From IMG/VR virus record IMGVR_UViG_3300025353_000004, positions 1 through 52,116 of that record: a stretch of 52,116 nucleotides of DNA; one strand, given 5' to 3'. This document shows positions 10,948-26,575 of this stretch, in pieces. The stretch's first letter is position 1. Every line of letters begins with the position of its first letter. The translations under genes were made by a program, and so were the position numbers. This DNA comes from a virus. Lineage: Duplodnaviria; Caudoviricetes. The notes below the pieces were generated by a model. That model made no database searches. It was not told where the DNA came from and worked only from the letters and a program-made list of their open reading frames with translations.

Positions 10948-10956
10948 GGAAATATC

Positions 10957-11622: not shown

Positions 11623-11628
11623 GTAATA

Positions 11629-11697: not shown

Positions 11698-11719
11698 CCT
11701 AATTTACTAGAGGAATAAT

Positions 11720-12055: not shown

Positions 12056-12442
12056 ATGAAAGAAATTTGGAAAGATGTGCCAGGGTATGAAGGTAAATAT
12101 CAAGTTAGTAGTTTTGGTAACGTAAAATCTTTTGTAAAAAATAAAGAAGGCAAACTTCTTAAACCGGGTCGTATGTCCAGCGGTCATTTATCTGTGGCTT
12201 TTGGAAGAGGAAATTCAATTTGTGTTCACACGTTAGTTCTATCAACTTTTGTTGGGGGTGCGCCTAAACGCCATGAATGTCGTCATTTAAACGGAAATCC
12301 AGCCGATAACAGGTTAGAAAATCTTAAATGGGGAACTAGGACTGAAAATATTTTAGATGCGGTATCTCATGGAACTTGGATGACTGTTGAAAGAGTTAAT
12401 GCTTTAAATAAAGGTCGCAACACTAGGTGGGGAAACAAATGA
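12056..12442 (+). CDS. NUMOD4-HNH homing endonuclease
   Basis: EIWKDVPGYEGKYQVSSFGNVKS (NUMOD4); RHLNGNPADNRLENL (HNH). Confidence 0.9.
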   Translation: MKEIWKDVPGYEGKYQVSSFGNVKSFVKNKEGKLLKPGRMSSGHLSVAFGRGNSICVHTLVLSTFVGGAPKRHECRHLNGNPADNRLENLKWGTRTENILDAVSHGTWMTVERVNALNKGRNTRWGNK

Positions 12443-14403
12443 GTATTTTGTGGTGCGATTTTGAAACAAAGTCCCGTTGCAATCTGTTAACGCGTGGCGT
12501 GTATAACTACGCGCAAGATAGTTCAACCGAAGTGTTGTGTATGTCTTATGCGTTTGGTGATGCTGATGTTGTAACGTGGACTCCTGACCAACCCTTTCCT
12601 GATGCAGTACGCAATCACAAGGGAATGATCTATGCTCACAATGCCGCCTTTGAACGGCTGATCTTTTGGTATGTATTGCAAATCAATTTTGATTTAGAGC
12701 AATTCTATTGCACCGCTACTCAGGCTAGGGCTAATTGCGCGCCCGGCTCTCTTGAAGATGTAGGGCGTTTCGCAGGGGCGTCTATGCGAAAAGATTTTAG
12801 AGGTTCACAATTAGTAAGAGCTTTATGTATTCCGCAACCTGACGGCAAGTTCAATGACGATCCCATACTTATGAAAGAAATGGTCGAATACTGCGAACAA
12901 GACGTCAGGGTTATGCGGAATATTAGCGGGGCGATGCGCCCGCTATCTAGCGAGGAACAACTCGACTATTGGGTTAATGAGCGCATTAATGATCGAGGCG
13001 TATTGGTGGATGTGCCACTTGCACAAGCCGCGATGCTCTATTCCGAAGAAGAAATCCTTGAAGTTCAAAAGCTGGTAGTAGAGATTACTGAAGGTGAGAT
13101 CACCTCAGTACGCTCGCCCAAGATGCGCGAGTGGGTGCAATCCAGAGTAGGTGATGAAGCTTTAAAGCTAATGGAGTCATATAAAGAAGGACGTAAAAAG
13201 TATTCCATTGATAAGAATGTGCGTAACTCTTTACTTATCTTTGCTGATGAGAATCCCGATCAAGTGCCACCTCATGTTGCGGATGTAATTCAATGTGCTG
13301 ATGATTTATGGGCATCCTCAGTAGCTAAGTTCCAACGCATGGTGAACTTAGCTGATGAAGAAGATCACAGAGTCCGAGGCGCGTTTATGTTTAATGGTGG
13401 TAGCGCTACAGGTAGGGCGTCTAGCATGGGGCTACAAGTTCACAATTTCACCCGCAAATGCGCCAAACATCCTGAGCAAGTGCGTAACGATATGGTAAAG
13501 GGTAGCGATATTGTGCCGCAACATGGTAAACGCGTAACCGATGTACTTAAAGGAATGTTACGCCCTGCAATTATTCCTGCTAAGGGTAAATACCTAGTCG
13601 TAGCAGATTGGGCAGGTATTGAAGCCCGTTGCAATCCTTGGTTATCTAACAAACCGCAAGCTGAAGAAGTACTTGATGTATTTAGAGCAGGGAAAGACAT
13701 TTATATCCGCGAAGCCGCAGGGATTTTTCGTTGCGATGAGGCTGAAGTTACGCCTGATCGTAGACAGCTAGGGAAAGTTGCTATTCTTGCTTGCGGCTAT
13801 GGTGGCGGCATTGGGGCTTTTGCGGCTATGGGTCGCAACTACGGCGTTATTCTTCCTGAGTCTGATGCTCGTAAGACTGTTGATGCTTGGCGTAGAGCTA
13901 ATCAATGGGCTGTTCAATATTGGCAAGAACTAGAAACGGCGTACACCAGAGCCATGCGAAACATAGGGCATGAGTTTAGTGCTGGGCGCGTAACGTATTT
14001 ATTTGATGGCTTGCACCTTTGGTATGCTTTACCCAGCGGCAGAGTGCTATGCTATCCCTATGCCAGACTAGATCAGGAGGGGGTAACTTACGCTAAAGCC
14101 GCGTGGAAACCCGCCGCCCTCGATACTGAATGGGCTAGAGCTAGACTCTGGAAAGGGTTGGCTTGCGAAAATATTACTCAGGCTGTTGCTAATGACATAT
14201 TGCGTAATTCTTTACGATTTTGCAACGAAGAAAAATTAGATGTAATATTGCATTGTCACGATGAAATAGTGGTAGAATGTGACATAAATGATGCGGAGCA
14301 AGTAAAAAATAGATTAAATGAAATTATGTGCGCTGCACCTGTTTGGGGGAAAGAGTTGCCCTTAGATGTTGAAATAAAAATAATGCAAAGGTACGGCAAA
14401 TGA
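12439..14403 (+). CDS. polA: DNA polymerase family A with 3'-5' exonuclease
   Basis: DFET and AHNAAFE exonuclease motifs; motif A DWAGIEAR, motif B RQLGKVAILACGYG, motif C HDE. Confidence 0.95.
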   Translation: MSILWCDFETKSRCNLLTRGVYNYAQDSSTEVLCMSYAFGDADVVTWTPDQPFPDAVRNHKGMIYAHNAAFERLIFWYVLQINFDLEQFYCTATQARANCAPGSLEDVGRFAGASMRKDFRGSQLVRALCIPQPDGKFNDDPILMKEMVEYCEQDVRVMRNISGAMRPLSSEEQLDYWVNERINDRGVLVDVPLAQAAMLYSEEEILEVQKLVVEITEGEITSVRSPKMREWVQSRVGDEALKLMESYKEGRKKYSIDKNVRNSLLIFADENPDQVPPHVADVIQCADDLWASSVAKFQRMVNLADEEDHRVRGAFMFNGGSATGRASSMGLQVHNFTRKCAKHPEQVRNDMVKGSDIVPQHGKRVTDVLKGMLRPAIIPAKGKYLVVADWAGIEARCNPWLSNKPQAEEVLDVFRAGKDIYIREAAGIFRCDEAEVTPDRRQLGKVAILACGYGGGIGAFAAMGRNYGVILPESDARKTVDAWRRANQWAVQYWQELETAYTRAMRNIGHEFSAGRVTYLFDGLHLWYALPSGRVLCYPYARLDQEGVTYAKAAWKPAALDTEWARARLWKGLACENITQAVANDILRNSLRFCNEEKLDVILHCHDEIVVECDINDAEQVKNRLNEIMCAAPVWGKELPLDVEIKIMQRYGK

Positions 14404-14891
14404 AATGGAAAACTATTCCTGAGTGGGATCGATATGAAGTAAGCGAATTTGGGGATGTTCGATCTAAAGACATGAAAGTCGGCGCAAAAGGCGGTAAAAC
14501 GGCTTTGCGAAAAGGTAAAAATTTGGCTTTAGTTACTAAAAATAATGGTTATGTCTGTGTTACGTTAACAAACGGAACAGCGCGTCCTCAAATTGGGGTA
14601 CATCGCTTAGTAGCTAGGGCTTTTTTAGGTGAATGTCCTATTGGGTTACACGTTCTACATTGGGATGGGAATAAATGCAATAACCATTATTCAAATTTAA
14701 GATATGGTACACCCGCTGAAAATGTAAATGATGAGCGTAGAATGAATAAAGAAGGCAGAATATTAAATCGCAATGCAGTTATAGAGATACGAAAAAAGAA
14801 TATGTCCGCTCCTAATCTAGCAAAACAGTTTGGCGTATCTGTCCATACAATTCACGGCGTTTGGTATAAACACTCATGGAAACACGTCTGA
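14400..14891 (+). CDS. NUMOD4-HNH homing endonuclease
   Basis: WKTIPEW..YEVSEFGDVRS, VHRLVARAF, HWDGNKCNN..NL; HTH-like C-terminus. Confidence 0.9.
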   Translation: MKWKTIPEWDRYEVSEFGDVRSKDMKVGAKGGKTALRKGKNLALVTKNNGYVCVTLTNGTARPQIGVHRLVARAFLGECPIGLHVLHWDGNKCNNHYSNLRYGTPAENVNDERRMNKEGRILNRNAVIEIRKKNMSAPNLAKQFGVSVHTIHGVWYKHSWKHV

Positions 14892-14978: not shown

Positions 14979-17330
14979 ATGGCTGAAAAAATTATATCAC
15001 CAAACGAATTCATTGACTTTTTAGCAAAACTACCTGCTGAGGGTGAAACTCTTTTGGTGGTTAAGCAAAAACCTGTCATGTCCAATGGTGAACACGCTTT
15101 GCATGGCGACGGGACACCAAAATATACTTGGATTCCGATGTTGCCTGAACGCTACAAGCCTAATGGTTCTCATTACGTTAATACTGGCAGTTTTATTATC
15201 AATCGTTTTAAAGACGGCAAAATGTCGGCTTCTAATGCCAATTGTGAACACACTTTATTTCTGATGTTAGATGATATTGGCACTAAATCTAAAGTGCCAC
15301 CATTAGAGCCAACTTGGAAGCTGGAAACATCGCCGGGTAATCAACAATGGGGCTATGTTTTTGACTTCGATCACCAGCCTACTAAGGGTGAATTCACCGC
15401 CGCTATTAAAGCGATTGCCGCGGCGGGCTATACCGATGGCGGCGCTACTAATGCGGTGCGTAATGTCAGAGTACCCGGTTCTGTTAACTTAAAAGAAGGT
15501 AAAAATTTCTTTGAAGCAAAACTTTTAGAGTTCCATGTGGATCGTGAGTTTAATCTTGACCAAATCTGTAAAGCTTTAGGGGTAAACCCTGAGCAAGCCG
15601 ATACTGCTTTTGTTCGCCCTATCTCTTTAATAGATGATGGGGACGACGACATACTTCAATGGCTTGACGATAACAATCTCATTCTTGAAGAAGGTAATCA
15701 ATCTGGTTGGTATGGGGTAGTTTGCCCGAACTCCGCCGAGCATAGCGATGGCAATCCAATGGGGCGCTATCACCCTCTCAATCGAGCTTACTGCTGTTGG
15801 CATGAGCATTGCCAAGACTTCGGTTCTAAAGCATTTCTATCTTGGGCGGCTGATAACGGCGCGCCTAGACATGAACCCGGTGTGCGGTCTGAACTATTAT
15901 CTAGCGCGCTTTCAATAGCGCTCAAAAAGATTGAGCCTTTTAATCTATTCACAGTTACGCCCGAAGATCAGCTTGCCGAGATCGAGCGTAAAGAGTTGGG
16001 TAGGCTAGAAAAGGAAGATTGGTATGACAGATTCGCCTATGTTCAGTCCGATGATTCTTACTTCGATTTGCTTGCGCGTAACGATATTTCCCGTGGCACT
16101 TTCAATGCGCTTTATCGCCATATCTCTTGCAAGTCTATCCATAATGGGCGCAAGCTTGAAGCGGCTAATTGCTATGATGAGAATCGCGTAGCTCACAATG
16201 CTGTTGCTTTGAGAGGTTTAACCTACGCCGCCGGTGATAGCGCCTTAGTGTCTAGCATGGGTGAATTGCATGGTAATCGGTGGGTTAATGCTCGCCCTGT
16301 TATCCGTTCAAAGGGTGGCAATATTAGCCTTTGGCTTAACCATTGCCATACGCTTGTACCAAACCAAAAGGAACTCGATCACCTTTGGGATATTATGGCG
16401 TTCAAACTCCAAAACCCAAAGATTAAGATCAATCATGCCGTTCTGCACGTTGGCGATGAGGGTTGCGGCAAGGATTTAATGTGGATGCCTTTTGTATGGT
16501 CAGTCTGTGGTGCAGATTCCAAGAATCTTTGCGTAGTTGATAGTGATAAACTTCAGTCCCAGTTCACTTACCATTTAGAGTCAGAGATATTGATTCTCAA
16601 TGAATTAAAAGAACCAGATTCAGCTACCCGTAGAGCATTAGCTAACAAGCTAAAGCCTATCATTGCCGCCCCGCCAGATATGCTGGACATTAATCGTAAA
16701 GGCAAAGATCCATACAAAATGGCTAACAGGCTATTCGTATTGGCTTTTTCCAATGAGCAGATTCCTATCTCTTTATCTTCCCAAGATCGGCGCTGGTTCT
16801 GCATTAGTTCTGAAGCGCAAGCGATGGAAAAGATTAGGGTAGGCTCAGGTCTTGAGCTATACAACTGGTATAGGGCAGGGAACTTTGAACATATTGCTAG
16901 TTGGCTTTACGCCCGTGATGTATCTAAATTCAACCCCGGCTCTGCCCCCGAAATGACTGAATTTAAGATGAATCTTTTAGAGTCAGGCATGAGTAGCCTA
17001 GAGTCCACCATTGTTGAAATGATTAAATCTCGTACAGGTGACTTTGCGCGCGGTGCGATTGGTAGCCCCTTGCATCCTATCTGTGATCGTATTGCTGATT
17101 TGATGGGCATGGGGCGTAATAAAGTACCCCAAAGCGCTTTGCTTCATGCGCTTAAAGAAGCAGGTTGGATTGATTGTGGTAGGCTGGGCGCGGCAGATAC
17201 TAGCAATAAGAAGCGGGTGTTTGCGTCACCAGATGCGGTGCGTAGCTTTAGTAAATCTGAATTACGGCGTATGATTGAGCTACCACCTGAGCCAAAAGCT
17301 GTGGTGTTAGACATGAAGCGGAGCGCATGA
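14979..17330 (+). CDS. Primase-helicase (RepB-like primase, Zn finger, SF3/DUF5906-like NTPase)
   Basis: LDD, ETSPGNQQWGY, RVPGSVN; CP..H..C.H.HC; Walker A GDEGCGKD; ILNE. Confidence 0.88.
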   Translation: MAEKIISPNEFIDFLAKLPAEGETLLVVKQKPVMSNGEHALHGDGTPKYTWIPMLPERYKPNGSHYVNTGSFIINRFKDGKMSASNANCEHTLFLMLDDIGTKSKVPPLEPTWKLETSPGNQQWGYVFDFDHQPTKGEFTAAIKAIAAAGYTDGGATNAVRNVRVPGSVNLKEGKNFFEAKLLEFHVDREFNLDQICKALGVNPEQADTAFVRPISLIDDGDDDILQWLDDNNLILEEGNQSGWYGVVCPNSAEHSDGNPMGRYHPLNRAYCCWHEHCQDFGSKAFLSWAADNGAPRHEPGVRSELLSSALSIALKKIEPFNLFTVTPEDQLAEIERKELGRLEKEDWYDRFAYVQSDDSYFDLLARNDISRGTFNALYRHISCKSIHNGRKLEAANCYDENRVAHNAVALRGLTYAAGDSALVSSMGELHGNRWVNARPVIRSKGGNISLWLNHCHTLVPNQKELDHLWDIMAFKLQNPKIKINHAVLHVGDEGCGKDLMWMPFVWSVCGADSKNLCVVDSDKLQSQFTYHLESEILILNELKEPDSATRRALANKLKPIIAAPPDMLDINRKGKDPYKMANRLFVLAFSNEQIPISLSSQDRRWFCISSEAQAMEKIRVGSGLELYNWYRAGNFEHIASWLYARDVSKFNPGSAPEMTEFKMNLLESGMSSLESTIVEMIKSRTGDFARGAIGSPLHPICDRIADLMGMGRNKVPQSALLHALKEAGWIDCGRLGAADTSNKKRVFASPDAVRSFSKSELRRMIELPPEPKAVVLDMKRSA

Positions 17331-17749
17331 TGTTTTATACCTATATCCATCGTTATCAAGATACGGGGCAAGTGTTTTATGTCGGTATGAGCAAAAATAA
17401 ATCACGCATGACTAGCAAACAACGCCTCCACCAACCTCATTGGTACGCCGCTATTGAAAATAAAGAATGGTTTGCTGAAGCTGTAGCTAATTGGAACACT
17501 AAAGAAGAAGCTGAAAGCCATGAGCAATTGCTAATAGCTTGCTTTAAAGATATGAAACACCCTATCATCAATTTAACCAAAGGTGGGGCAGGGCGCACAG
17601 GCTTTAAATGGACAGCACAAGAACATGAAAAACAATTGGTAAATCAACAAGAACGCGGGCGTAAAGGCGGCTTAATATCTTCAGAAGCAAAGCGCATCAG
17701 CAGTAAACTCAATGGTAAACTAGGTGGTAGACCGAAACGCTTGGGCTAG
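17327..17749 (+). CDS. GIY-YIG-like homing endonuclease
   Basis: FYTYIH...VFYVG, E..LI and NLTKGG motifs; C-terminal NGKLGGRP. Confidence 0.75.
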   Translation: MMFYTYIHRYQDTGQVFYVGMSKNKSRMTSKQRLHQPHWYAAIENKEWFAEAVANWNTKEEAESHEQLLIACFKDMKHPIINLTKGGAGRTGFKWTAQEHEKQLVNQQERGRKGGLISSEAKRISSKLNGKLGGRPKRLG

Positions 17750-17794
17750 AATACACCCCCAAACGCTTGGGCTGAATATTTTATGGAGTTAAAT

Positions 17795-17956
17795 ATGAAC
17801 AAACCAATCAAAAACGATTCAGGCGCAATTAAATACACCAACTTATCTTCGGCTGGTAAAGCAATGGGATCAAAAGGCGGTAAATCTAACTCAGAAGCTA
17901 AAGTACGCGCCGCCAGAGAAAACGGCAAACAGGGTGGCGGGCATACCCCAAAATAA
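17795..17956 (+). CDS. 53-aa KGG/SEAK-type small basic protein (not in ORF track)
   Basis: GGAG RBS; MNKPIKNDSGAIKYTNLSSAGKAMGSKGGKSNSEAKVRAARENGKQGGGHTPK. Confidence 0.65.
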   Translation: MNKPIKNDSGAIKYTNLSSAGKAMGSKGGKSNSEAKVRAARENGKQGGGHTPK

Positions 17957-18080: not shown

Positions 18081-18095
18081 TGAGAATTGTTCTCA
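18081..18095. promoter_or_regulatory. Fur-box-like 7-1-7 palindrome
   Basis: TGAGAAT-T-GTTCTCA versus TGAGAAT-N-ATTCTCA. Confidence 0.6.
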
Positions 18096-18111
18096 TTTAG
18101 CCGTTTTTCTT

Positions 18112-18122
18112 GTTTTACATAA
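18112..18122 (-). promoter_or_regulatory. XerD-arm-like half site
   Basis: Minus strand TTATGTAAAAC versus the XerD arm TTATGTTAAAT; no good XerC arm. Confidence 0.4.
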
Positions 18123-18150
18123 TACTTTTTTCATTCGGAAAACCCTTATA

Positions 18151-18163
18151 AATCAAGGGCTTA
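18151..18163 (+). promoter_or_regulatory. IHF consensus site
   Basis: AATCAA-GGGC-TTA matches WATCAA-N4-TTR, with AT-rich DNA upstream. Confidence 0.55.
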
Positions 18164-18443
18164 CGGCATTTTTCTAATGCTATTTATACGCAATTTTTTA
18201 ATGAGCGAGCGCGGTCGCATTTGCGCGGGCGCTAGAATAGCCCCGCCGCCGGTTTGCCAATAGAAAAGGGCGCAATATTAGGGCGGCATTAAGCCGCGCC
18301 AATAGAGCGCCCGCAAAATACGGCATTAAATAGCGCGGGCGATATTCTCGCAAATAATCCGCGCCCCTTTAGAGCGCTCAATACTTGCGACAATAGCCCG
18401 CTAAGGGCGCGGCAATGCGCCGCCGCCCCTAAGCTATTGAGAG

Positions 18444-18469
18444 AAAAGAAAAAGCCGCCATAAGGCGGC
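18444..18469 (-). terminator. Intrinsic terminator of the leftward early operon
   Basis: GCCGCC-UUAU-GGCGGC followed by UUUUUCUUUU on the minus strand. Confidence 0.8.
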
Positions 18470-18486
18470 ATTGTTTAATTGTTTAC

Positions 18487-19245
18487 TTAATAGCGCCCTT
18501 CTACACTTAACCAAAAATCCTCTTTTAGCGCTTCGCGGCGCTCGCGGGCGCTGATAATTTCGGCGCGATATTCGCGCAATTTATCGGTTAACGCGTCGCA
18601 AATTGCGCCCGCTAAATCAATGCCCGCCCGCCGTTGCGCTTTAATAGCCACAATGAGAGCGCGCGCCATTTTGCGGGCTTCGCTAATTTGCTCGGCTAAA
18701 TCATCGCGAATTTGCTCGGCTTGAAATTGCGCGTCGGCTTCGCGCCCTTGCTCGGCTTCGCGCTCGGCTATGCTATCAGCGCGGCGGGCGGCATCATATA
18801 TAGCCCCTTGATTTTCTAAATTTTCGCCGTCATTCGGGGCAAATTGCCCTTGTGAAAAGTAGATTAGGGCTATATCGCTTTCACTATAAGCAATAGCGGG
18901 GCAAATAAAAACGCCGCGCCGCCCCGCTTTAATTTTGACAATATAGGGTTTAACTATTTCGCGCTGAAAGCTATCGGCATAATAGCCGGTATATTGAAAG
19001 CGGCGCGGGCTTATATCTTCAATTAGCGCGGCATTATACCCCGTGAGATCATACGCGCTTAAATCGCCGCTTTTATTGTAAAAATTGGCGCTATCATACG
19101 CGATATAGCCCCGCCGTTTATATTTCACTTGATGATTAAGCGCCGCCGCGTAAGCGCCCGCCGGATTATGCACCGCCCATTTTTCAGCTTGTTTTTTTAC
19201 GCTCGCAAGCCGCGCCGTTAATTGATAGCTTATAGAATTGCTCAT
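18487..19245 (-). CDS. Hypothetical early protein with C-terminal coiled coil
   Basis: 252-aa ORF, GAGG RBS, ends just before the terminator. Confidence 0.75.
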   Translation of the reverse strand: MSNSISYQLTARLASVKKQAEKWAVHNPAGAYAAALNHQVKYKRRGYIAYDSANFYNKSGDLSAYDLTGYNAALIEDISPRRFQYTGYYADSFQREIVKPYIVKIKAGRRGVFICPAIAYSESDIALIYFSQGQFAPNDGENLENQGAIYDAARRADSIAEREAEQGREADAQFQAEQIRDDLAEQISEARKMARALIVAIKAQRRAGIDLAGAICDALTDKLREYRAEIISARERREALKEDFWLSVEGRY

Positions 19246-19273
19246 TTTTTAGCCTCTATTCTAAAAACGGGCA

Positions 19274-19328
19274 AAATTACCCGCCATTAGCCCCGCGCTT
19301 AATGCTTAGGGCTAATAGCTGATAATTT
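19274..19328 (-). other. Intergenic 19-bp RNA hairpin (RNase III-site-like)
   Basis: AAAUUAUC-A-GCUAUUAGCCC...GGGCUAAUGGC-G-GGUAAUUU; G-U pairs form only on the minus strand. Confidence 0.5.
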
Positions 19329-19555
19329 TAGGCTTCAATATTTACTATAATTTTTTCACGCCCTTGCATGACGTATAGCGAGCCAATATTAGAATAAATA
19401 CGGCAATAAACCCGCCGCCATTTTTCAGCGTGGAAAATCTTATATTGTGTAGGAATTTTTGAGCCGTAACCCGAAGCCGTATAATTTAAGCCCATTTTTT
19501 GCCATTCTAGCGGCTCGCGTTTAACTTGCGCGCCCGCAAAATATAGGGCGCTCAT
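19328..19555 (-). CDS. Hypothetical early protein
   Basis: YTASGYGSKIPT...WRRVYC..YSN motif; ATGA coupling. Confidence 0.7.
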   Translation of the reverse strand: MSALYFAGAQVKREPLEWQKMGLNYTASGYGSKIPTQYKIFHAEKWRRVYCRIYSNIGSLYVMQGREKIIVNIEA

Positions 19556-19710
19556 TCTAAATTCTCGCTTTCAATTTCGCGTATTTTAAAATATTCGATT
19601 ATTTCGCCATTTTCTAATTGCTCGGCTATTGCATCATATATCCAATTATTTTTTAAAATATAGCCGTTATCATCTAGCGCAATTTTTAACTTAATCTCAT
19701 AATTTTTCAT
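19552..19710 (-). CDS. Hypothetical 52-aa acidic protein (not in ORF track)
   Basis: MKNYEIKLKIALDD...ESENLE; ATGA overlaps at both ends. Confidence 0.6.
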   Translation of the reverse strand: MKNYEIKLKIALDDNGYILKNNWIYDAIAEQLENGEIIEYFKIREIESENLE

Positions 19711-19976
19711 TCTAATAACCCCTTAGCTATCATAATTTTTTGATCGAATTCTTTTAGCTCATAATTTTCTAATTGAATTAGCATAAATTCGGGCGGCGTT
19801 GATGCTTCGCGCTCATTTTCGCCGCGCCGTAAGCCGTCGGCTATTAGCTCGGCATATTCGGTCAGTTTTTCTAATGCTTCGCGGCTTTCTAAAAAAGCCC
19901 CTAAAATGGCGGCTTGCTTAATATCGCCGCTATTGTGCGCGGCTTTTTCTAATTCTGTTAAATGGATAATATTCAT
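19707..19976 (-). CDS. Hypothetical early protein
   Basis: AGGGG RBS; ATGA coupling. Confidence 0.65.
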   Translation of the reverse strand: MNIIHLTELEKAAHNSGDIKQAAILGAFLESREALEKLTEYAELIADGLRRGENEREASTPPEFMLIQLENYELKEFDQKIMIAKGLLE

Positions 19977-20152
19977 TTTTCGCCCCTTAAATTTTGGGCT
20001 TCAATCTCGCGGATAATCTCTTGCGCTTCGGTTATCTCTTCCCGATCACTCCAATATTGCTCACCGCTCGGCTCTTGATCGTCTAAATAATAATCGGCAA
20101 AATCGGATAATCGGCATAAAGTATTGAATTGCTTTTTTGTGATTTTTATCAT
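19973..20152 (-). CDS. Hypothetical 59-aa acidic protein (not in ORF track)
   Basis: MIKITKKQFNTLCRLSDFADYYLDDQEPSGEQYWSDREEITEAQEIIREIEAQNLRGEK; fills the operon gap exactly. Confidence 0.6.
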   Translation of the reverse strand: MIKITKKQFNTLCRLSDFADYYLDDQEPSGEQYWSDREEITEAQEIIREIEAQNLRGEK

Positions 20153-20153
20153 T

Positions 20154-20435
20154 TTATTTAATCCCCTTCATTGTAGAATTGAGCGCTTCGCATAAATCCG
20201 CAAGGTTATAAATAGATCCGAAAATAATCCCGCCGCCAAATTGCTTATTGTGAAATTTTCGCCCGCCTAATTTGCGCGCCCTTGCAAGCGCTAAATTATA
20301 TTTTCTAGTGATAAAATCGCCCGAATAATCGGCATTTTCCGCCGGTGTATTGAGCGCTAGAAAGTGAATACAATAGCGCGGATTACCATTACTATCATTA
20401 TTCATTCTTGAAAAATCGGATTGTGAGATTGTCAT
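20154..20435 (-). CDS. Hypothetical early protein
   Basis: NDSNGNPRY...GGRKFHNKQFGGGI motif; operon packing. Confidence 0.7.
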   Translation of the reverse strand: MTISQSDFSRMNNDSNGNPRYCIHFLALNTPAENADYSGDFITRKYNLALARARKLGGRKFHNKQFGGGIIFGSIYNLADLCEALNSTMKGIK

Positions 20436-20437
20436 TT

Positions 20438-20626
20438 TTAAGCCCTTTCCAAATATATAGCCATTAAATTATTCGCGCATTTTTCGCATATTGCACAATA
20501 GCCGCGCGCTGTCATTTCATCTAAAATTATCGCTTCGCTATCATTTTCGGGGTTATCAATATCCCAAAATAGATCGGTTACCCTCTCAATCGCGCCGCAA
20601 GAGTCACAATTATTTAAATCGCTCAT
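20438..20626 (-). CDS. Small CxxC...CxxCxxC zinc-binding protein
   Basis: CDSC and CAICEKC; operon packing. Confidence 0.6.
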   Translation of the reverse strand: MSDLNNCDSCGAIERVTDLFWDIDNPENDSEAIILDEMTARGYCAICEKCANNLMAIYLERA

Positions 20627-20628
20627 TT

Positions 20629-21522
20629 TTAAACCCCTTCAATTAGTTTTAATTCTTGCGCCATTTTTTCAATTTGATCCCATGCGATAACGTGACAGCC
20701 GACGATCAAATTTTCCCCGTCAAAACTATTAAAGCGATACGCGCCCAAATTGATATTGTGTAAACCGGCTTCAAGTTTGCCGCCGTTGCGTTTTGTGCGC
20801 GCTAATAAAGGGTAAATTTTGAGCGCATCGCTAACGGGTATTTTCGCGCCGCGCGTTGTTTCTATTTGCTCGCCCTTTATTCTTAATAGCGTATTGCTAA
20901 ATTGAAAGCCGTTAGTATTTACGCTTTCACCGGTTAGCCATAAAGCGAGCCGCTCGGCGCTTTCAAGCGCGGCAATTCTATTGTTTTCGGCTTGTTTAAT
21001 AGCTCTCTTAGCGTCGCGCAATTTTGCCGCTTCACTTACATAAGCGCGGGCGGCTTTTTCGGCGTCGTTGTCTTTTATCCATTGTGGCGGCGGCGTTAGT
21101 GTAGCTTCGCAATAACTAAAAGCGGCGGCGTTATTCTCAAATAATTCACTTGCTAAATTGCCGCGTGTTATCTTACGGGTATTTTTATTAAAATCAGCGC
21201 GCAAGCGCTCGGCTCTATTTGCCCATATAGCAAGATTATGCGACGACGGGCGGCTCGGATCGTCGCAATATATTACTTGATAGCTATCAGGAATAGCGGC
21301 GCGGATAATGCCCTTATGTTTGCCCGTTGATGATGAGTAGCCGCGCGAAGTGAATAAAACTATATTGCCGTATTCGGGCGCGAAGCGCGCAACAGGAAAA
21401 TGCCGCCCATAACTATAGATTGTTTGCCCTTCAAATTCGATATTGCCCGCGCGCCCTTCATTTTGCGATTGAGAAGCCCATATATGGGAGGCTTCATTGT
21501 GGCTAGAAAATACCTTTTTCAT
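20629..21522 (-). CDS. Hypothetical early protein (297 aa)
   Basis: Long ORF with IYSYGRHFP and GCHVI motifs; AAGGGG RBS. Confidence 0.8.
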   Translation of the reverse strand: MKKVFSSHNEASHIWASQSQNEGRAGNIEFEGQTIYSYGRHFPVARFAPEYGNIVLFTSRGYSSSTGKHKGIIRAAIPDSYQVIYCDDPSRPSSHNLAIWANRAERLRADFNKNTRKITRGNLASELFENNAAAFSYCEATLTPPPQWIKDNDAEKAARAYVSEAAKLRDAKRAIKQAENNRIAALESAERLALWLTGESVNTNGFQFSNTLLRIKGEQIETTRGAKIPVSDALKIYPLLARTKRNGGKLEAGLHNINLGAYRFNSFDGENLIVGCHVIAWDQIEKMAQELKLIEGV

Positions 21523-21689
21523 AAAAACCCCTTAGCGTAAAAATAAACTGTTAAAACAAGGGCGCTTATAACGCCGCCCAAAATGCAAGCGCCGATAATT
21601 TCAAGCGCTGATACGTCATTTTTTTGGTTAATCCTATCGGCTTCGGCTTGTGCTTCGGCGTAAGATTTATACAGTTTTTGCTTTTCCAT
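21519..21689 (-). CDS. First early gene, small membrane protein
   Basis: C-terminal TM helix; directly downstream of a sigma70 promoter. Confidence 0.6.
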   Translation of the reverse strand: MEKQKLYKSYAEAQAEADRINQKNDVSALEIIGACILGGVISALVLTVYFYAKGFL

Positions 21690-21748
21690 TTTGCCCGCCC
21701 TTATCATTTAATTGTCTAAATTGTCATACGTTTTTAAGCGTATGAATA

Positions 21749-21778
21749 ATTATAAGCTGAATTATTTTTACTTGTAAA
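21749..21778 (-). promoter_or_regulatory. Sigma70-type early promoter
   Basis: Minus strand TTTACA-18 nt-TATAAT. Confidence 0.7.
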
Positions 21779-21980
21779 GCATTTTGTTGCATAAAAGCTA
21801 AATTATTTTCTAGGTGTTTACCCTTAGTTTTTATGGTCAAATTGTCTTTTTTTTTGCGGGGATTGTTGCGATATTGTCAAAATGGCGGGCGGGCTTAGGG
21901 CTATATAAGATAAGCTAAAAGCGGCTTTTATGGTTAAGATTGTCATTATAGGTATGCTATGTTTTAAGCAAGTTTTTATA

Positions 21981-22000
21981 TACTGTATAGATATACAGTA
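21981..22000. promoter_or_regulatory. LexA (SOS) box
   Basis: TACTGTATAGATATACAGTA, 19/20 match to TACTG(TA)5CAGTA. Confidence 0.8.
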
Positions 22001-22080
22001 GTATTTTGGCGTGTAGTTGTAGCGCTCAATATATCCGCCGGTGACAATGGACAATATGACAATGGAAAAATGCTGTTAGC

Positions 22081-22227
22081 TTAGGGATAAATGCTAATGA
22101 ATAAGGGCTTAATTCTTAATGCTAAATGCTAATGAATAAGGGCTTAATTCTTAATTCTTAATTCTTAATTCTTAATTCTTAATTCTTAATTCTTAATGCT
22201 AAATGCTAAATGCTAAATGCTAAGGGC
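22081..22227. repeat. Tandem heptamer array (21 units)
   Basis: Strict 7-nt register of TAAATGC, TAATGAA, TAAGGGC, TTAATGC and TTAATTC (seven in a row at 22144..22192). Confidence 0.9.
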
Positions 22228-22328
22228 AAAATCTACCCGCGCCCCGCTATGCTTTAATTTTTCAGCCCTTAGCCGCAAGCATTCAGCTATTAGCTAACGG
22301 CTAACGGGTGACAATCTAGCCCATTCTT

Positions 22329-22356
22329 ATTTGACATAACGTACGTTATACGCAAG
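22329..22356 (-). promoter_or_regulatory. dif: dif-like XerC/XerD site
   Basis: Minus strand CTTGCGTATAA-CGTACG-TTATGTCAAAT; 11-6-11 layout versus E. coli GGTGCGCATAA-TGTATA-TTATGTTAAAT. Confidence 0.75.
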
Positions 22357-22628
22357 CCGTCAAAAAATAGCCGTTTGCTGAATGCTTTTTATAGGGGGTT
22401 TTTTTGCCTATCAAAAAAGAAAAAGGGGGTCATTAATATCTAGTTACCCGATCAGCGGACTTTTTAGCTTTCAGAACACCGCAAAAAGTTCTTTTGCAAA
22501 ACGCAAAAAAATTTTAGAAAAATTAAAACTAAGTTAGTAAACACTAACATATTATGTCAAACAAGCCACTTGCAATCTATAAGGCTTATGCTAATATCGG
22601 TTTATCAATCAACTATAGGGGAGTAGTT

Positions 22629-23036
22629 ATGGCGCGTTTTACACCAGACCCAGTATTCTATTCAGTTGACCATAAGACCGATAAAATTACCGCTACGCAA
22701 GAAGATTTAGACAAAATCTACGATGCCGCTTACCGCGGGCTAACAGGTGACGCATTAGCTCTTTATTCAGGGTTTATGCCTATAGACTTTAATCGCTTAT
22801 GCCAATTTGATTCAAAAGCGGCGGATATGGTATTAACTGCCAGAGCCGCAAATCAAGCAGAACTTAGTGGCGCGCTAATGACTAACGCCTTAAATGGGGA
22901 TACTAAAGCGCAACATATTGCCTTGACACATTTGCATGGCTGGAAGCCCGCTAGACCAGAAGGTGAAAGCTCCAATGAAATCCGTATCATTGTAGAAAAC
23001 GCAGAAGCTCACATAAAACCGGGCGTAGATGGTTGA
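22629..23036 (+). CDS. terS: Putative terminase small subunit
   Basis: Immediately upstream of terL and overlapping it; helical protein with NGDTKAQ..L...HGW motif; GGGGAG RBS. Confidence 0.7.
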   Translation: MARFTPDPVFYSVDHKTDKITATQEDLDKIYDAAYRGLTGDALALYSGFMPIDFNRLCQFDSKAADMVLTARAANQAELSGALMTNALNGDTKAQHIALTHLHGWKPARPEGESSNEIRIIVENAEAHIKPGVDG

Positions 23037-24318
23037 TATTCGTAGGGTCAAATTACCAAAGTTACACGCTGGGCAAGTTGATCTGTACAAAGGGCAAACG
23101 CGACTCAACGTAGTACGCGCGGGCAGACGTTTTGGTAAATCTATCTTTGCTACATGGTTAGCCGCTAAAACAGCAATTTCAGGAAAACAAGTAGGTATCT
23201 TTGCCCCAGAGCATAAGCAATTAGCTGAAATTTGGGATGCTCTACGGGATACGCTTGATCCTGTGATTAGAAGCGCTAATCGTAATGATGCAACCATCAA
23301 GCTAATTGGTGGTGGCAAGATTGACTTTTGGACAATTTTGGATAATGAGTTAGCAGGGCGCGGGCGATCTTATGATTTAACGCTCATTGATGAGGCGGCG
23401 TTTACCAAAAGCCCCCAAATGAAAAATGACATTTGGTACAAGTCAATTAAACCAACAATGCTAACAACCCAAGGTATTACTTGGGTTTTTTCTACGCCTA
23501 ACGGGGTTGATCCTGATAATTTCTTTTGGGCGGCGTGTAATGAAACCGATTTAGGATTTAAAGAGTTTCATGCCCCAAGTTTGGCTAACCCTTATGTGCC
23601 ACCAGCAGAAATTGAATCTGAAAGATTACGCCAACATGAGTCTGTGTTCCGGCAGGAGTATCTTGCTGAGTTTATTGATTGGCGGTCTATCAGCCTGTTA
23701 GCTGTAGACAAACTGCTAGTAAATGAATTGCCTGTTCCTTATCCTACTCAAGTAGAAACTGTCTATGCGGTGATTGATTCTGCCATGAAAGCAGGTCAAA
23801 ACTTCGATGGAACAGCGGTGGTGTACTTTGCTCTTAACTCGCAAAGCGATCAGCCGTTAACAGTCTTAGATTGGGATATTGTGTCAATTGACGCCGCTAT
23901 GTTAGAGCATTGGATTCCATCTGTGTTCACAAGGCTAGAAGAATTAGCAAAGCAGACAAAAGCTATCTATGGCATTACTTCTACTTTTATTGAAGGAAAA
24001 GGGTCAGGTATTGTGCTATTGCAACAAGGTCAAAATAGGGGTTGGAACGTCCGTGAGATTGAACCTAAGTTCGTGCAAATTGGAAAAGATGATCGCGCTA
24101 TGAGTATTTCAGGTTACCATTTCAATGAAAAGGTCAAAATTAGCGAACACGCCTATTACAAAACAGTCCCCTTCAAAGGTGCAACTCGAAATCACTTGAT
24201 TACAGAAATGGCGGGATTTAGACTAGGAGATCCAGACATTAATAAAAAATCCAATGATTTATTAGATTGTTATGTCTACGGAGTTGCGGTAGGCTGTGGG
24301 AATAAACTGGGGTTCTAG
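23029..24318 (+). CDS. terL: Terminase large subunit
   Basis: AGRRFGKS Walker A, IDEAA Walker B, STPNG, FRQEYLAEF and nuclease DLLD motifs. Confidence 0.95.
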   Translation: MVDIRRVKLPKLHAGQVDLYKGQTRLNVVRAGRRFGKSIFATWLAAKTAISGKQVGIFAPEHKQLAEIWDALRDTLDPVIRSANRNDATIKLIGGGKIDFWTILDNELAGRGRSYDLTLIDEAAFTKSPQMKNDIWYKSIKPTMLTTQGITWVFSTPNGVDPDNFFWAACNETDLGFKEFHAPSLANPYVPPAEIESERLRQHESVFRQEYLAEFIDWRSISLLAVDKLLVNELPVPYPTQVETVYAVIDSAMKAGQNFDGTAVVYFALNSQSDQPLTVLDWDIVSIDAAMLEHWIPSVFTRLEELAKQTKAIYGITSTFIEGKGSGIVLLQQGQNRGWNVREIEPKFVQIGKDDRAMSISGYHFNEKVKISEHAYYKTVPFKGATRNHLITEMAGFRLGDPDINKKSNDLLDCYVYGVAVGCGNKLGF

Positions 24319-25769: not shown

Positions 25770-26570
25770 GTGACATTCTACGAATGCCTCACAGCCGCCA
25801 TTAATGAATTTATTATTTATGGCTTCGATAGCCAAGATAGACTCGATTATTGGGTAAAAGAGCTTAGAAAAACGGCTGTAAAATCATTAGTTACGCCGCA
25901 AAAGCTCCAAAATGAGCTTGAACGTGCTTTAAAAGGCGCTTTTGATCGTTTAGTAACAAAGGGCGGGTTAGTCAATAAAGACGTAACAAGATTTACTGTA
26001 GCCCGATTAACACCAAAAATGCGCGCTGAATTGGATCGCCGCATCTTAGCTTCGGTTAATCTTATCAAGTTTAACCGCGAAGAATCTATCAGTAATATGT
26101 TGCGCCGCTTCTCTGGATGGGCAACTTCAATTCCTATTGGCGGAAGCAAAGTAGTTGATAAAAAAGAAGAAAAAAAGCAAATTAAAAAAGAATTAGGGAT
26201 GCTTCCGTTTAAAGAACGGCGCGTGATTATTGACCAAACCCACAAGTTAATTGCTAATATTAACGAAATCGTAGCGTTAGATAATGGCGCAATTGCCGCA
26301 AAATGGCATAGTAATTGGAAACAAGCGGGTTATAACTATCGCGAAGATCATAAAGAGTTAGATGAGAATATTTATTTAATTCAAAATAATTGGGCGCAAA
26401 AAGATGGTTATGTAAAGCCAAAAGATGGATATACTAGCAATGTAGTCGCGCCCGGGGAAGAGGTATATTGTCGGTGTCGCTATAAGTACCTTTATCGAGT
26501 TAGTCAATTGCCCGATGAAATGATAACGGCAAAAGGTAAAGAGGCTTTACAAACTAAGAAAATCTACTGA
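25770..26570 (+). CDS. Head morphogenesis protein (Mu gpF-like)
   Basis: IIDQTHKL, REDH and PGEEVYCRC motifs. Confidence 0.8.
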   Translation: MTFYECLTAAINEFIIYGFDSQDRLDYWVKELRKTAVKSLVTPQKLQNELERALKGAFDRLVTKGGLVNKDVTRFTVARLTPKMRAELDRRILASVNLIKFNREESISNMLRRFSGWATSIPIGGSKVVDKKEEKKQIKKELGMLPFKERRVIIDQTHKLIANINEIVALDNGAIAAKWHSNWKQAGYNYREDHKELDENIYLIQNNWAQKDGYVKPKDGYTSNVVAPGEEVYCRCRYKYLYRVSQLPDEMITAKGKEALQTKKIY

Positions 26571-26575
26571 TAAAA

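Follow-up and report, generated by a model that had tools for sequence, protein, structure and literature searches.

Loss of short DNA words from one operon of a freshwater myovirus: a possible T5-like leading segment

Results

A myovirus of ~52 kb, known by sequence alone from freshwater metagenomes, carries an island in which one operon and the untranslated DNA on both sides of it lack a set of short words that are frequent in the rest of the genome. The loss goes beyond what codon usage produces, is symmetric between strands and is present in non-coding DNA. We give roughly even chances to the reading that the island is a leading, pre-early host-takeover operon with two untranslated flanks, similar to that of phage T5, and that it has been purged of nuclease targets.

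Direct counting over the window (the whole stretch of DNA analysed, 52116 bp) revealed zero occurrences each of CCAG, CTGG, GCAG, CTGC, GAAC, GTTC and GGCC between 18093 and 22473 (4381 bp), as the initial annotation had reported. The first six words are common elsewhere, as it had also stated, with 991 sites in the 52-kb genome (CCAG 130, CTGG 265, GCAG 114, CTGC 142, GAAC 152 and GTTC 188) and, outside the island, one site every 48 bp on average. Between 18089 and 22474 lies the longest gap free of the six words, 4385 bp; the runner-up is 429 bp. The annotation had expected about 10-15 of each word; the computed values range from 9.9 to 20.3 using island base composition and from 10.5 to 24.3 using word frequency outside the island, which together predicts ~91 sites where none is found. 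For some of the words a trinucleotide Markov model already gives a low expectation (0.9-4.3), reflecting the depletion of CAG/CTG and TGG/CCA, yet it still expects 9.3 GTTC and 20.8 GGCC in the island. Altogether 12 of the 256 tetramers are missing from the island, and AGGAG is also absent; AAGGGG serves as the ribosome-binding site in six of the nine island genes. The absence of GGCC had been listed as an island feature, but this word is missing from all 52116 bp, island and remainder alike.

The island also has a distinct texture. It is rich in GCGC (80 copies; 18.3/kb compared to 3.1/kb elsewhere) and CCGC (51 copies), in agreement with the initial description. The observed/expected ratio (o/e) of transitions between G+C and A+T (S/W) is 0.5-0.75 compared to a genome median of 0.94, and CpG o/e is 1.4-2.4 compared to 0.75, making the island the sole long stretch of the genome with low S/W and high CpG values. 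This compositional part covers ~18100-21900, and the word-free part runs on to 22473. The core contains 1006 distinct canonical 6-mers; 81 other windows of 3.8 kb average 1392, with a minimum of 1225. Because the abundant GCGC and CGCG are common restriction sites themselves, the avoidance is not generic.

Genome-wide palindrome avoidance of the kind known in phages is strong in the rest of this genome. GGCC (0 versus 73 expected), GGWCC (0 versus 44) and CCWGG (2 versus 44) are missing or rare, as are 26 of the 64 palindromic hexamers, which are absent altogether. In contrast, the island purge is local, concerns mainly non-palindromic tetramers and is superimposed on this background. The rarity of CCWGG (2 copies) and GCWGC (5 copies) throughout the genome means that neither accounts for a purge confined to the island. 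E. coli Chi occurs in 9+3 copies outside the island.

Codon usage was controlled for by shuffling synonymous codons 1000 times in the nine island genes, a control the initial annotation had proposed; the shuffles kept the proteins and the island codon usage. The shuffled genes contained a mean of 38.7 sites of the six words (minimum 23) compared to 0 observed, so that the depletion stands. Zero was reached in 1.9% of shuffles for CCAG, 0.2% for CTGG, 12.4% for GTTC and in none for GCAG, CTGC or GAAC; each orientation of CCAG/CTGG and GCAG/CTGC is depleted individually. GGCC had a mean of 15.0 and a minimum of 7 in the shuffles, compared to 0 observed. Distinct canonical 6-mers numbered 952 compared to 1288 +/- 16.5 in the shuffles, and the S/W transition value was 0.311 compared to 0.357 +/- 0.004. 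The non-coding flanks are both free of the six words, consistent with the earlier statement that the bias is alike in coding and non-coding parts. At 21708-22473 no site was found compared to 9.3 expected under an order-1 Markov model (zero reached in 0 of 1000 simulations) and 5.0 under order 2 (P(0)=0.006). At 18093-18486 the order-1 expectation was 5.1 (P(0)=0.005), and the absence was not significant under order 2 (P(0)=0.53). The purge of both orientations and both non-coding flanks indicates that the constraint acts on DNA.

The island forms one operon on the minus strand, in which nine small genes lie between a promoter and a terminator (Table 1). It sits between the replication genes and terS/terL, beside a repeat-rich untranslated region. 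The more likely start codon of the first gene is the ATG at 21689, preceded by an AAGGG ribosome-binding site. Profile searches found no family for the 62 aa cysteine protein and no nuclease domain in any island protein, and profile and sequence searches matched no known anti-defence family, T5 A1 or T5 A2. The 252 aa protein weakly matches gp005 of Caulobacter phage Karma (E 0.05), a gene in Karma's terminal repeat. Phage_TreK is the family of a terminal-repeat-encoded protein of Staphylococcus phage K, and the family search matches both repeat copies of that phage. The distal untranslated region is a candidate binding or stop region. The region between the island promoter and terS contains a 7-bp unit repeated 16 times (22107-22221), a 35-bp unit repeated 3.3 times and several TGACAAT/ATTGTCA boxes in both orientations, and shows strain-level indels; it may function in packaging or entry control. 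The neighbouring TerL is 49% identical to annotated terminases.

Table 1. Coordinates of the island, its genes and its surroundings in the window
Feature	Position	Strand	Evidence
Left flank of normal composition: primase, GIY-YIG-like homing endonuclease, 57-aa ORF	14979..17956	+	
Stretch free of the six words, also without GGCC (missing genome-wide)	18093..22473	.	word counts, gap lengths
Distal untranslated region between two convergent operons; short repeats, e.g. GCCAATAGA, CGGCATTAA..GCGC	18093..18486	.	repeat families D1-D9
Compositional core: G/C-only blocks, A/T runs, CpG excess, fewer k-mers	18100..21900	.	S/W o/e 0.51-0.74, CpG o/e 1.4-2.4
Terminator-like hairpin and T run just 3' of the last island gene: GCCGCCTTATGGCGGC then TTTTTCTTTT	18454..18469	-	
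252 aa gene, function unassigned	18487..19245	-	phrog_8188
75 aa gene, function unassigned	19328..19555	-	phrog_3436
52 aa gene, no family	19552..19710	-	
89 aa gene, no family	19707..19976	-	
59 aa gene, no family	19973..20152	-	
93 aa gene, Pfam Phage_TreK PF24229	20154..20435	-	E 1.1e-17, 64 bits, cut-off 22
62 aa gene, CxxC ... CxxCxxC cysteines, zinc-ribbon-like by eye	20438..20626	-	translation
297 aa gene (i297), phrog_7247	20629..21522	-	most widely conserved island gene
First island gene, 62 aa, C-terminal hydrophobic helix by eye	21519..21707	-	
Sigma-70-like promoter TTTACA-18-TATAAT (11/12), facing the island operon	21749..21778	-	consensus match only; scan found 8 sites, fewer than 12.8 in shuffles
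Repeat-rich untranslated region, island promoter to terS	21708..22553	.	
terS-position gene (160 aa, no family match) and terL (429 aa), divergent from the island	22554..24318	+	

The same sharply bounded island was found at all eight loci of one set of relatives; at one of these, 0 sites of the six words occur in a 4024 bp island compared to 157 in 8002 bp of flank. At all 44 loci for which a far flank was available, the i297 gene has lower S/W o/e and six-word density than that flank, although identical or near-identical contigs are included and the loci are not all independent. The bounded composition is kept by relatives whose island genes are 59-83% identical at the amino-acid level and whose gene content differs; the comparison across relatives with different early genes, another proposed check, found the same bounded composition. 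Comparison between relatives gives 98-100% identity for flanking genes but 82% for i297, together with differences in gene content, and variants with pieces of the island swapped occur in other samples. From these sequence comparisons, the island appears to behave as in an arms race, and the purge is probably kept up by ongoing selection. In nine pooled islands, GAAC/GTTC have 9 sites compared to 264 for CAAG/CTTG and 152 for GAAG/CTTC, all of one S/W class. The three reported pairs are the three most depleted tetramers in these islands, at 0.044, 0.067 and 0.072 of their flank frequencies. Island composition persists in other backbones and, in weaker form, at 28-33% i297 identity.

Homologues of i297 occur within 10-kb terminal repeats in phiCbK-like phages and close to the ends of records from other phages. 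Karma gp008 (28.6% identity, E 2e-17) lies inside an annotated 10,254-bp terminal repeat. Two island genes, i297 and the 93 aa TreK gene, thus belong to families that also occur in terminal-repeat gene sets, those of phiCbK-like Caulobacter phages and of Staphylococcus phage K (Tre genes), respectively. As in the island, the Karma repeat is blockier than its surroundings (S/W o/e 0.82-0.88 compared to ~1.02); the phage K repeat has no blocky signature. In two other phage backbones, related modules lie where contigs share an end: contigs G001 and G002 have identical homologous start and end bases and carry the module at the end away from terS, and contigs L008 and L009 have a common homologous start base ~450 bp upstream of the i297 homologue. 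The phiCbK-like and phage K genes belong to repeats of 8-10 kb that each genome carries in two copies. The island, in contrast, is covered to the same depth as its flanks (15.2 compared to 16.4 and 15.8 in contig X6), indicating a single copy, unlike the two-copy long terminal repeat of T5. Own-lineage contigs that begin upstream of terS have variable starts (74, 590 and 1144 bp), which leaves a fixed end unsupported. Headful packaging, if used by this lineage, would make the first-injected DNA variable.

The closest parallel is the first-step-transfer (FST) DNA of T5/BF23 (Demerecviridae), likewise a few kb of small genes, mostly of unassigned function, with host-type promoters and next to a long untranslated stretch rich in repeats, as seen in the T5 annotation and in the available text of the Davison preprint. 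The annotated T5 FST repeat is the only low-S/W part of 120 kb (o/e 0.82-0.86; rest 1.012 +/- 0.028, minimum 0.96), with a CpG o/e of 1.33 (rest 0.76, maximum 1.01), a 6.4-fold enrichment of GCGC and depletion of GAAC, CAGA and GTAC. T5 pre-early genes fall below their synonymous shuffles (S/W z -8.4, 6-mers z -12.3), unlike T5 early genes. The island and the T5 FST thus have in common a blocky S/W texture, CpG excess, enrichment of GCGC/CGC, depletion of GAAC/CAGA/GTAC and a k-mer vocabulary below synonymous shuffles. The island signature is much stronger (S/W o/e 0.5-0.7 compared to 0.82-0.86), and three tetramer pairs are fully missing from it compared to no tetramer from the T5 FST. Comparison with T5 pre-early proteins found no A1, A2 or dmp homologue in the island. 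The T7 early region, with Ocr, lacks the blocky signature, in contrast to the island, as do the first-entering or terminal regions of phage K and SPO1.

Discussion

The initial annotation favoured selection on DNA over simple horizontal acquisition, and the purge beyond codon usage, on both strands, in non-coding DNA and in diverged relatives bears this out, as does island GGCC, which tracks the resident genome. Its further proposal, exposure before anti-defence proteins are made, gains indirect support from the operon anatomy, the terminal-repeat homologues, the shared contig termini and the T5 FST signature. Precedents for position-dependent selection exist. T5-like phages are described in the available text of PMC10644984 as withstanding RM types I-III, CRISPR and Ssp if the FST is free of sites, and nuclease sites as mattering inside the FST only. 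In Murciavirus (Autographiviridae), as far as the accessible part of PMC12455610 describes, a variable, anti-defence-rich leading region that is injected early sets Type I RM sensitivity, and motif location decides it. That study dealt with individual Type I motifs, while the island has lost an entire vocabulary. Against the reading of the island as a leading segment purged of nuclease targets stand the single-copy depth, the variable own-lineage contig starts, the lack of an anti-defence family match, the abundance of GCGC/CGCG and the absence of the signature from the phage K, SPO1 and T7 regions.

Alternatively, the phage's own early nuclease may destroy host DNA at short mixed G/C-A/T words at a stage when the island alone has entered, with the leading, pre-early island free of its targets. 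Two different phage backbones (groups A and B) with similar island genes avoid a common word set, which fits an island-encoded specificity better than host restriction, and the T5 FST is recoded in the same manner. We nevertheless find such self-immunity unlikely: the island proteins have neither a nuclease domain nor similarity to T5 pre-early proteins, and at least nine avoided words are many for one enzyme. The avoided words of distant relatives are partly different, which is compatible with either self-immunity or host nucleases.

It is similarly doubtful that the texture itself serves a physical or binding role, with the missing words as a by-product. Such roles could include the behaviour of last-packaged/first-ejected DNA, binding of host or phage proteins, or very strong early transcription. 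Blockiness is common to the T5 FST, the Karma terminal repeat and distant relatives with differing top words, and GGCC, which is 0 in islands where the whole genome lacks it, is 3-fold enriched in islands elsewhere, as if G/C-only blocks were favoured. Texture alone, however, does not predict that some words of one S/W class are near-absent and others abundant, and the word-free zone outreaches the blocky zone by ~570 bp, to 22473.

There is a slim chance that the phage or a previous host modifies these words and that the early operon has to avoid modification, for instance for transcription by host polymerase or escape from modification-dependent nucleases. This would suit a DNA-level, strand-symmetric purge that ends at transcription-unit borders, and the genome has a glycosyltransferase-methyltransferase fusion and a nucleotidyltransferase-like gene. 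Yet no DNA methyltransferase or base-modification pathway was found in the genome, and the methyltransferase domain matches generic SAM-dependent families, none of them DNA-specific.

Codon adaptation for fast early translation is very improbable as the sole cause. It has been proposed for conjugative plasmid leading regions, which are the first DNA in and anti-defence-enriched, and whose composition is under study; the portion of PMC13478746 available reports codon adaptation and no consistent palindrome depletion. Island codon usage departs strongly from that outside the island: GCG and GCC make up 70% of Ala codons compared to 29%, and CGC accounts for 58% of Arg codons compared to 23%. Unlike in plasmids, codon usage cannot account for the purge, given the shuffle result, the purged non-coding DNA and the effect on both strands; two-fold codons, moreover, end in T (AAT 86%, TTT 84%, TAT 81%), which is no usual translational optimum. 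Recent horizontal acquisition from a donor of like composition, although in keeping with the sharp borders, the GIY-YIG-like homing endonuclease at the left border and the mosaic content among relatives, is largely refuted and scarcely credible, since the bounded composition holds to 59% i297 identity, in other backbones and weakly at 28-33%, avoidance is context-dependent beyond codon usage, island GGCC follows the resident genome, and no bacterial genome contig carries an i297 relative (0 confirmed of 3 pattern matches).

If the island is a leading pre-early segment, it may enter first or alone, its genes may be anti-defence or takeover genes, and host defence nucleases may be the selecting agent. 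It would be present in the cell, and read by host RNA polymerase, before DNA-cutting systems are neutralised, and selection would therefore recode its silent sites, ribosome-binding sites and non-coding DNA. Recoding would strip short nuclease-target words and leave a smaller k-mer vocabulary of G/C-only blocks and A/T runs, whereas the remaining genome would retain the target words because it is exposed only once the island products act.

Word avoidance within the island

The initial annotation described an island at 18093-22473 that lacks the six tetramers CCAG/CTGG, GCAG/CTGC and GAAC/GTTC, and direct counting bore this out to the base, with zero occurrences of each. Across the whole window the same words are found 991 times (CCAG 130, CTGG 265, GCAG 114, CTGC 142, GAAC 152 and GTTC 188), corresponding to a site every 48 bp in the DNA beyond the island. 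The longest gap free of the six words is the island itself, at 4385 bp, and the second longest is 429 bp. GGCC was also said to be missing from the island; this is correct but is not specific to it, as GGCC is absent from all 52 kb. In total, 12 of the 256 tetramers are missing from the island. The described richness in GCGC and CCGC was likewise recovered, with 80 copies of GCGC (18.3/kb compared to 3.1/kb) and a 3-4-fold enrichment of CGC, GCG and CCG.

We quantified texture as the switch ratio, the observed/expected (o/e) frequency of transitions between S (G+C) and W (A+T) letters, a low ratio being termed blocky. In 300-bp windows the switch ratio of the island was 0.51-0.74 compared to a genome median of 0.94, and this was the sole long stretch of its kind. 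CpG o/e was 1.4-2.4 (genome median 0.75). The blocky texture spans about 18100-21900 and the word-free zone reaches further, to 22473. A second, small patch with the texture of the island was observed at 26101-26604 (switch ratio 0.73-0.76, CpG o/e 1.6-1.7), in the head-morphogenesis gene at 25770-26570; it contains the third-longest gap without the six words, 390 bp (26214-26604).

The codon-shuffled control proposed in the initial annotation was performed by permuting synonymous codons among the positions of the nine island genes, which keeps the proteins and the island codon usage. The 1000 shuffles contained on average 38.7 six-word sites (minimum 23) and 15.0 GGCC sites (minimum 7), compared to none observed. 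On the coding strand, zero was reached in 1.9% of shuffles for CCAG, in 0.2% for CTGG and in none for GCAG or CTGC, showing that each of these words is individually depleted. Their avoidance in both orientations points to double-stranded DNA, not mRNA. The vocabulary was also reduced, with 952 distinct canonical hexamers compared to 1288 ± 16.5 in the shuffles, and 393 pentamers compared to 480 ± 5. The purge exceeds codon usage. Non-coding DNA is depleted as well: the left non-coding part has 0 sites against 5.1 expected under an order-1 Markov model (P=0.005; order-2 not significant), and the right has 0 against 9.3 (order-1) and 5.0 (order-2, P=0.006). The ribosome-binding site is AAGGGG in six of the nine island genes and AGGA or TAGGG in other genes; AGGAG occurs 19 times elsewhere and never in the island.

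In nine pooled islands, GAAC/GTTC was the most depleted tetramer (9 sites against 206 expected from the flanks). Words with an identical G/C-A/T pattern differed greatly in number, GAAC/GTTC (9) and GTAC (7) being rare compared to CAAG/CTTG (264) and GAAG/CTTC (152). The avoidance is therefore word-specific and more than blockiness. A physical or binding need for block texture in a leading segment would address the low switch ratio and leave this word specificity aside, and we consider it an unlikely explanation. GAAC/GTTC is the core motif of Dnd/Ssp phosphorothioate-dependent restriction, and its depletion is as expected if Dnd/Ssp is avoided. The candidate PAM AAG/CTT was not depleted in the island (strands summed).

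Organisation of the island and its products

The island carries a minus-strand operon that diverges from terS and terL (see table). Its putative sigma-70-like promoter was assigned by consensus match only. The untranslated region upstream contains TGACAAT boxes in both orientations and both tandem and inverted repeats.

The 93-aa product matched the Pfam family PF24229, Phage_TreK (64.2 bits, cut-off 22, E 1.1e-17), the sole named family among the island proteins. In Staphylococcus phage K, TreK is encoded in the terminal repeats, both of which carry it. The 297-aa product belongs to a large family without annotated function (190 proteins at E <= 0.001). Among cultured phages, its homologues in phiCbK-like Caulobacter phages (Karma gp008) are located inside annotated terminal repeats of 10,254 bp, and those in several other phages lie within a few kb of the record ends. 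These gene families tie the island to terminal regions of phage genomes. In PHROGs the island proteins matched unknown-function families only, Pfam gave TreK only and NCBIfam gave no match; no known anti-defence or nuclease family was hit in the three collections. PDB sequences, searched by profile, yielded no match with an E value under 0.29, and in the ESM Atlas the 297-aa product fell into unnamed viral clusters only and the 252-aa product had no usable match. When the alignment of the 297-aa family was used against genome contigs, none of three pattern matches was confirmed as a relative.

Features of the window
Feature	Position	Strand	Details
SNF2 helicase	8103-9455	-	
DNA polymerase	12427-14403		
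Primase	14979-17330		
Distal untranslated region		 	394 bp of short repeats, past the terminator, facing the end of the plus-strand replication operon
Terminator	18469-18454		hairpin-plus-T
Nine tightly packed island genes		-	62, 297, 62, 93, 59, 89, 52, 75, 252 aa in transcription order
252-aa product gene	18487-19245	-	phrog_8188
93-aa product gene	20154-20435	-	Phage_TreK match
297-aa product gene	20629-21522	-	phrog_7247
Promoter, putative	21778-21749	-	TTTACA-18-TATAAT, 11/12 match to sigma-70-like consensus
Upstream untranslated region			846 bp, upstream of the promoter, ends at terS start; 7-bp unit x16, 35-bp unit x3.3
terL	23029-24318		
Tail sheath	34657-35979		
Tail fibre	47571-51533		1320 aa
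Portal			encoded in the window
PD-(D/E)XK/DUF2800 exonuclease			encoded in the window
Chi octamer GCTGGTGG	232, 29461, 30724, 37735, 46175, 49131, 49830, 50694, 51471	+	
Chi octamer GCTGGTGG	1484, 23599, 51978	-	

Conservation and mosaicism of the island in relatives

All eight loci found with the 297-aa protein (63-83% identity) have the same sharply bounded island, in which the six words are nearly or wholly absent. At locus L005 there are 0 sites in a 4024 bp island compared to 157 in 8002 bp of flank, and at L002 there are 3 in 5025 bp compared to 111 in 6857 bp. The order of terL and terS, island, small ORF, homing endonuclease and primase is kept. The bounded island persists when its gene content differs, a comparison that the initial annotation had suggested: at L004 the flanking DNA is 98.9% identical and the 297-aa protein 82% identical, with several island genes missing or replaced. 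In contigs from other samples, island pieces of 860, 325, 934, 159 and 204 bp are swapped within 18402-20650, and indels are found in the repeat region at 22340-22395. The gene content of the island therefore varies within natural populations.

A wider scan covered 52 loci, from which L049 and L052 (matches of 42-47 residues) and six loci lacking far flank were left out. At all 44 remaining loci, a count that includes several same or near-identical contigs, both switches and the six words were scarcer in the gene for the 297-aa relative than in DNA over 3.5 kb from it. The pattern persists at 28-46% identity, weakly there. GGCC is absent from both island and flanks in the closest relatives and is enriched ~3-fold in the island of other lineages. 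The island therefore has a tendency to G/C-only blocks, and it loses a word where that word is not tolerated by the resident genome. The top avoided words (GAAC, CCAG, GCAG, AGAC, GACT and CAGA) are common to two backbones with similar island genes, and distant lineages avoid partly different words (AGGA, CACC, GGAG and GAGA).

A horizontally acquired island that retains its donor's ordinary composition is ruled out, since codon usage fails to explain the purge, which is kept in diverged relatives, and since GGCC follows the resident genome and the avoided words are shared across backbones and differ by lineage. The finding is not an acquisition artefact and is far beyond chance; the annotation's preference for selection over simple acquisition is upheld. 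Selection on the island acts at the DNA level, is word-specific and is conserved.

Palindrome avoidance and host clues

The genome also shows strong palindrome avoidance that is separate from the island purge. Outside the island, the observed and expected numbers are 0 and ~73 for GGCC, 0 and 44 for GGWCC, 2 and 44 for CCWGG, and 4 and 67 for ACSGT. Of the 64 palindromic hexamers, 26 are absent outside the island, including ATGCAT, ACATGT, AGATCT and TTCGAA. The avoided palindromes (GGCC, GGWCC and these four hexamers) may resemble the specificities of restriction enzymes of filamentous cyanobacteria; HIP1 (GCGATCGC) has 0 occurrences in the window. The E. coli Chi octamer is present in nine plus-strand and three minus-strand copies, none of them in the island. 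For comparison, the plus/minus counts are 7/0 in T7 and 7/1 in T5.

The phage genome and its ends

The window phage comes from freshwater metagenomes and is of the contractile-tail type and carries replication genes of its own. The window yielded no tRNA genes, and the phage collection searched held no near-identical match to it. Two family-2 glycosyltransferase genes lie at 1873-4075, the first of them fused to a SAM-methyltransferase domain. An HNH endonuclease gene (14400-14891) and a GIY-YIG-like homing endonuclease gene (17327-17749) are located within the replication module. The HNH gene is probably mobile, since it has no match in L002, L005 and L007, although these loci cover its position.

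CheckV rated the window 100% complete, and end repeats are absent. Both the first ORF (175-1074) and the tail fibre match phrog_23837, and the break of a related contig, G005, would map at ~48.7 kb within the fibre gene (computed from coordinates). It therefore seems that the record stops where assembly broke off in variable fibre genes, and not at the ends of the genome.

Two complete-looking contigs of another backbone, G001 (43.4 kb) and G002 (42.0 kb), come from different samples, are ~80-92% alike and encode relatives of the 297-aa product at 30-33% identity. They share a homologous start base (GTAGTAAGTGG...) and a homologous end base (...ATGAAAAGAGAGG), as real cohesive or fixed ends would, and their termini look like true fixed ends. 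The left end carries an HNH gene and an island-like module with genes pointing towards that end, and terS is 55 bp from the right end. The terminase-distal end of a phage genome is, as a rule, packaged last and leaves first, as established for lambda; by this rule, the G001/G002 module would enter first. Contigs L008 and L009 likewise share a homologous first base, which lies about 450 bp upstream of their homologue of the 297-aa gene, and this start has no detectable counterpart in the intergenic region of the window. In the window's own lineage no shared terminus was seen among the assembled contigs, which start at differing distances from terS.

Contig depth of the island equals that of the flanks (15.2 compared to 16.4 and 15.8 in contig X6; not above the flanks in X7 and X8; depths of contigs, not raw reads), indicating that the island is not a duplicated long direct terminal repeat. 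A ~2-fold depth at 22020-22320 was considered as a short terminal repeat and rejected because it coincides with tandem repeats and loose ends of other sequences. The 'direct terminal repeat' of contig G004 is a 120-bp overlap at a break inside DNA of normal composition and so says nothing on ends.

The composition signature in T5 and other phages

The left terminal repeat of T5 (1-10219, NC_005859) is annotated as first-step-transfer (FST) DNA that 'enters host cell first'. It carries the pre-early genes, including a leftward set towards the end. At its inner border is an untranslated injection stop signal of 1 kb, in a region that a preprint describes as full of repeats, inverted repeats and palindromes (Davison, 10.1101/866236). 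The T5 terminal repeats (1-10219 and about 111500-120000) have a switch ratio of 0.79-0.86, alone among 2-kb windows over 120 kb; the other 50 windows average 1.012 ± 0.028 (minimum 0.96). Mean CpG o/e is 1.33 in FST windows compared to 0.76 elsewhere (maximum 1.01). The same words are enriched as in the island (GCGC 6.4-fold, CGCC and CGCG each 4.3-fold, CGC/GCG 3.4-fold). AGAG and GAGA are the top depleted words, and the ten most depleted include GAAC/GTTC (0.40), CAGA (0.46) and GTAC (0.46); no tetramer is absent from the FST. The 17 pre-early genes of T5 fall below their synonymous shuffles in switches (z -8.4) and distinct hexamers (z -12.3), compared to z +2.9 and -2.4 for 13 early genes, which are not below. 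The T5 FST thus carries the same composition signature as the island, but weaker.

The terminal repeat of Karma (1-10254) has a switch ratio of 0.82-0.88 compared to about 1.02 in the next 40 kb; TTAA, GTTA/TAAC and CTAG are enriched 5-9-fold in it. T7 lacks blocky texture throughout, as do the repeat of phage K and the terminal region of SPO1. Base-composition-corrected tetramer shifts of the island correlate with those of the T5 FST (r 0.60; at most 0.35 in 23 control windows) and also with those of the phage K repeat (0.50) and the T7 early region (0.27 and 0.51). Since phage K and T7 also correlate, this measure probably reflects in part gene type or amino-acid content, and we relied on the synonymous-shuffle tests instead. 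The uncorrected correlation was discarded as confounded by G+C content (one control window reached r 0.53).

As in the T5 type, words are absent inside the region and present in the rest of the genome. Unlike the T5 FST, the island is not part of a long terminal repeat (two copies per virion) and has no A1 or A2 homologues; when all nine island proteins were compared with T5 1-12000 by tblastn, no match was obtained at E <= 0.1. We do not claim T5-type membership for the island because it lacks both of these features.

Discussion

Earlier work has established that, in T5-like and some T7-like phages, restriction targets have to be missing only from the DNA that is injected first. T5-like phages are reported to withstand restriction of Types I, II and III as well as CRISPR-Cas and Ssp systems if the FST region is without sites, and the same source calls it unclear how they escape degrading themselves (PMC10644984). 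A preprint finds A1 both necessary and sufficient for the degradation of host DNA and does not settle how the DNA of T5 evades it (10.64898/2026.04.02.716235). Sensitivity of Murciavirus is decided by whether one Type I motif is present in the region injected first, and the authors consider restriction to be most stringent on the first-injected segment and this not to apply to headful packagers (PMC12455610). In plasmid leading regions, a 2026 study reports that codons are adapted and that palindromes are not consistently depleted (PMC13478746). In listings and abstracts, we found no description of compositional recoding, either for an island of this kind or for the T5 FST.

On the reading with the most support, the island would have the role of the T5 FST, as a leading, pre-early host-takeover operon. 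Its DNA would be exposed in the cell before its products act, and for that reason sequences that DNA-cutting systems target would have been purged from it. The remainder of the genome would avoid only those targets that the early products cannot neutralise, that is, the genome-wide palindrome set. The sharp borders on both sides, without a gradient, fit a discrete step better than gradual entry. The data show conserved, word-specific selection on DNA, the layout of the operon, gene families tied to terminal regions and the parallel with T5; the order of entry, early expression, an anti-defence function and the identity of the selecting nucleases are our inferences.

The selecting nuclease could also be the phage's own, the leading segment being purged of targets of an early phage enzyme. 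We consider such self-immunity unlikely; none of the island proteins matched A1 in tblastn or a nuclease family in PHROGs, Pfam or NCBIfam. The very high GCGC and CGCG content shows that the purge is not generic avoidance of all restriction sites. The FST-like reading of the island may have a wider form. As a tentative possibility, G/C-block and A/T-run recoding, a minimal k-mer vocabulary and lineage-specific words at zero could be a general hallmark, readable from sequence, of phage DNA that is exposed alone at the start of infection, common to the T5 FST and unrelated uncultured phages. If so, staged or two-step entry and the pre-early anti-defence gene set would be predictable in uncultured phages. 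Taken to its limit, this proposal would make the purged words the targets of the phage's own host-DNA-destroying nuclease, which, if true, would answer the long-open question of how T5 first-step DNA survives A1.

The novelty lies in how far the avoidance goes and in the form it takes. A whole operon, with its ribosome-binding sites and untranslated flanks, has been rewritten far beyond codon usage to exclude words that occur every 48 bp elsewhere, and a family of uncultured freshwater phages has preserved this rewriting. The known principle is thereby extended in an extreme and apparently undescribed form. Given the weaker signature in the T5 FST, leading, pre-early DNA may be recognisable by a marker computed from sequence. 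This would lead directly to candidate anti-defence genes and to phages with staged genome entry, and the signature offers a testable idea of how leading DNA escapes host or phage nucleases.
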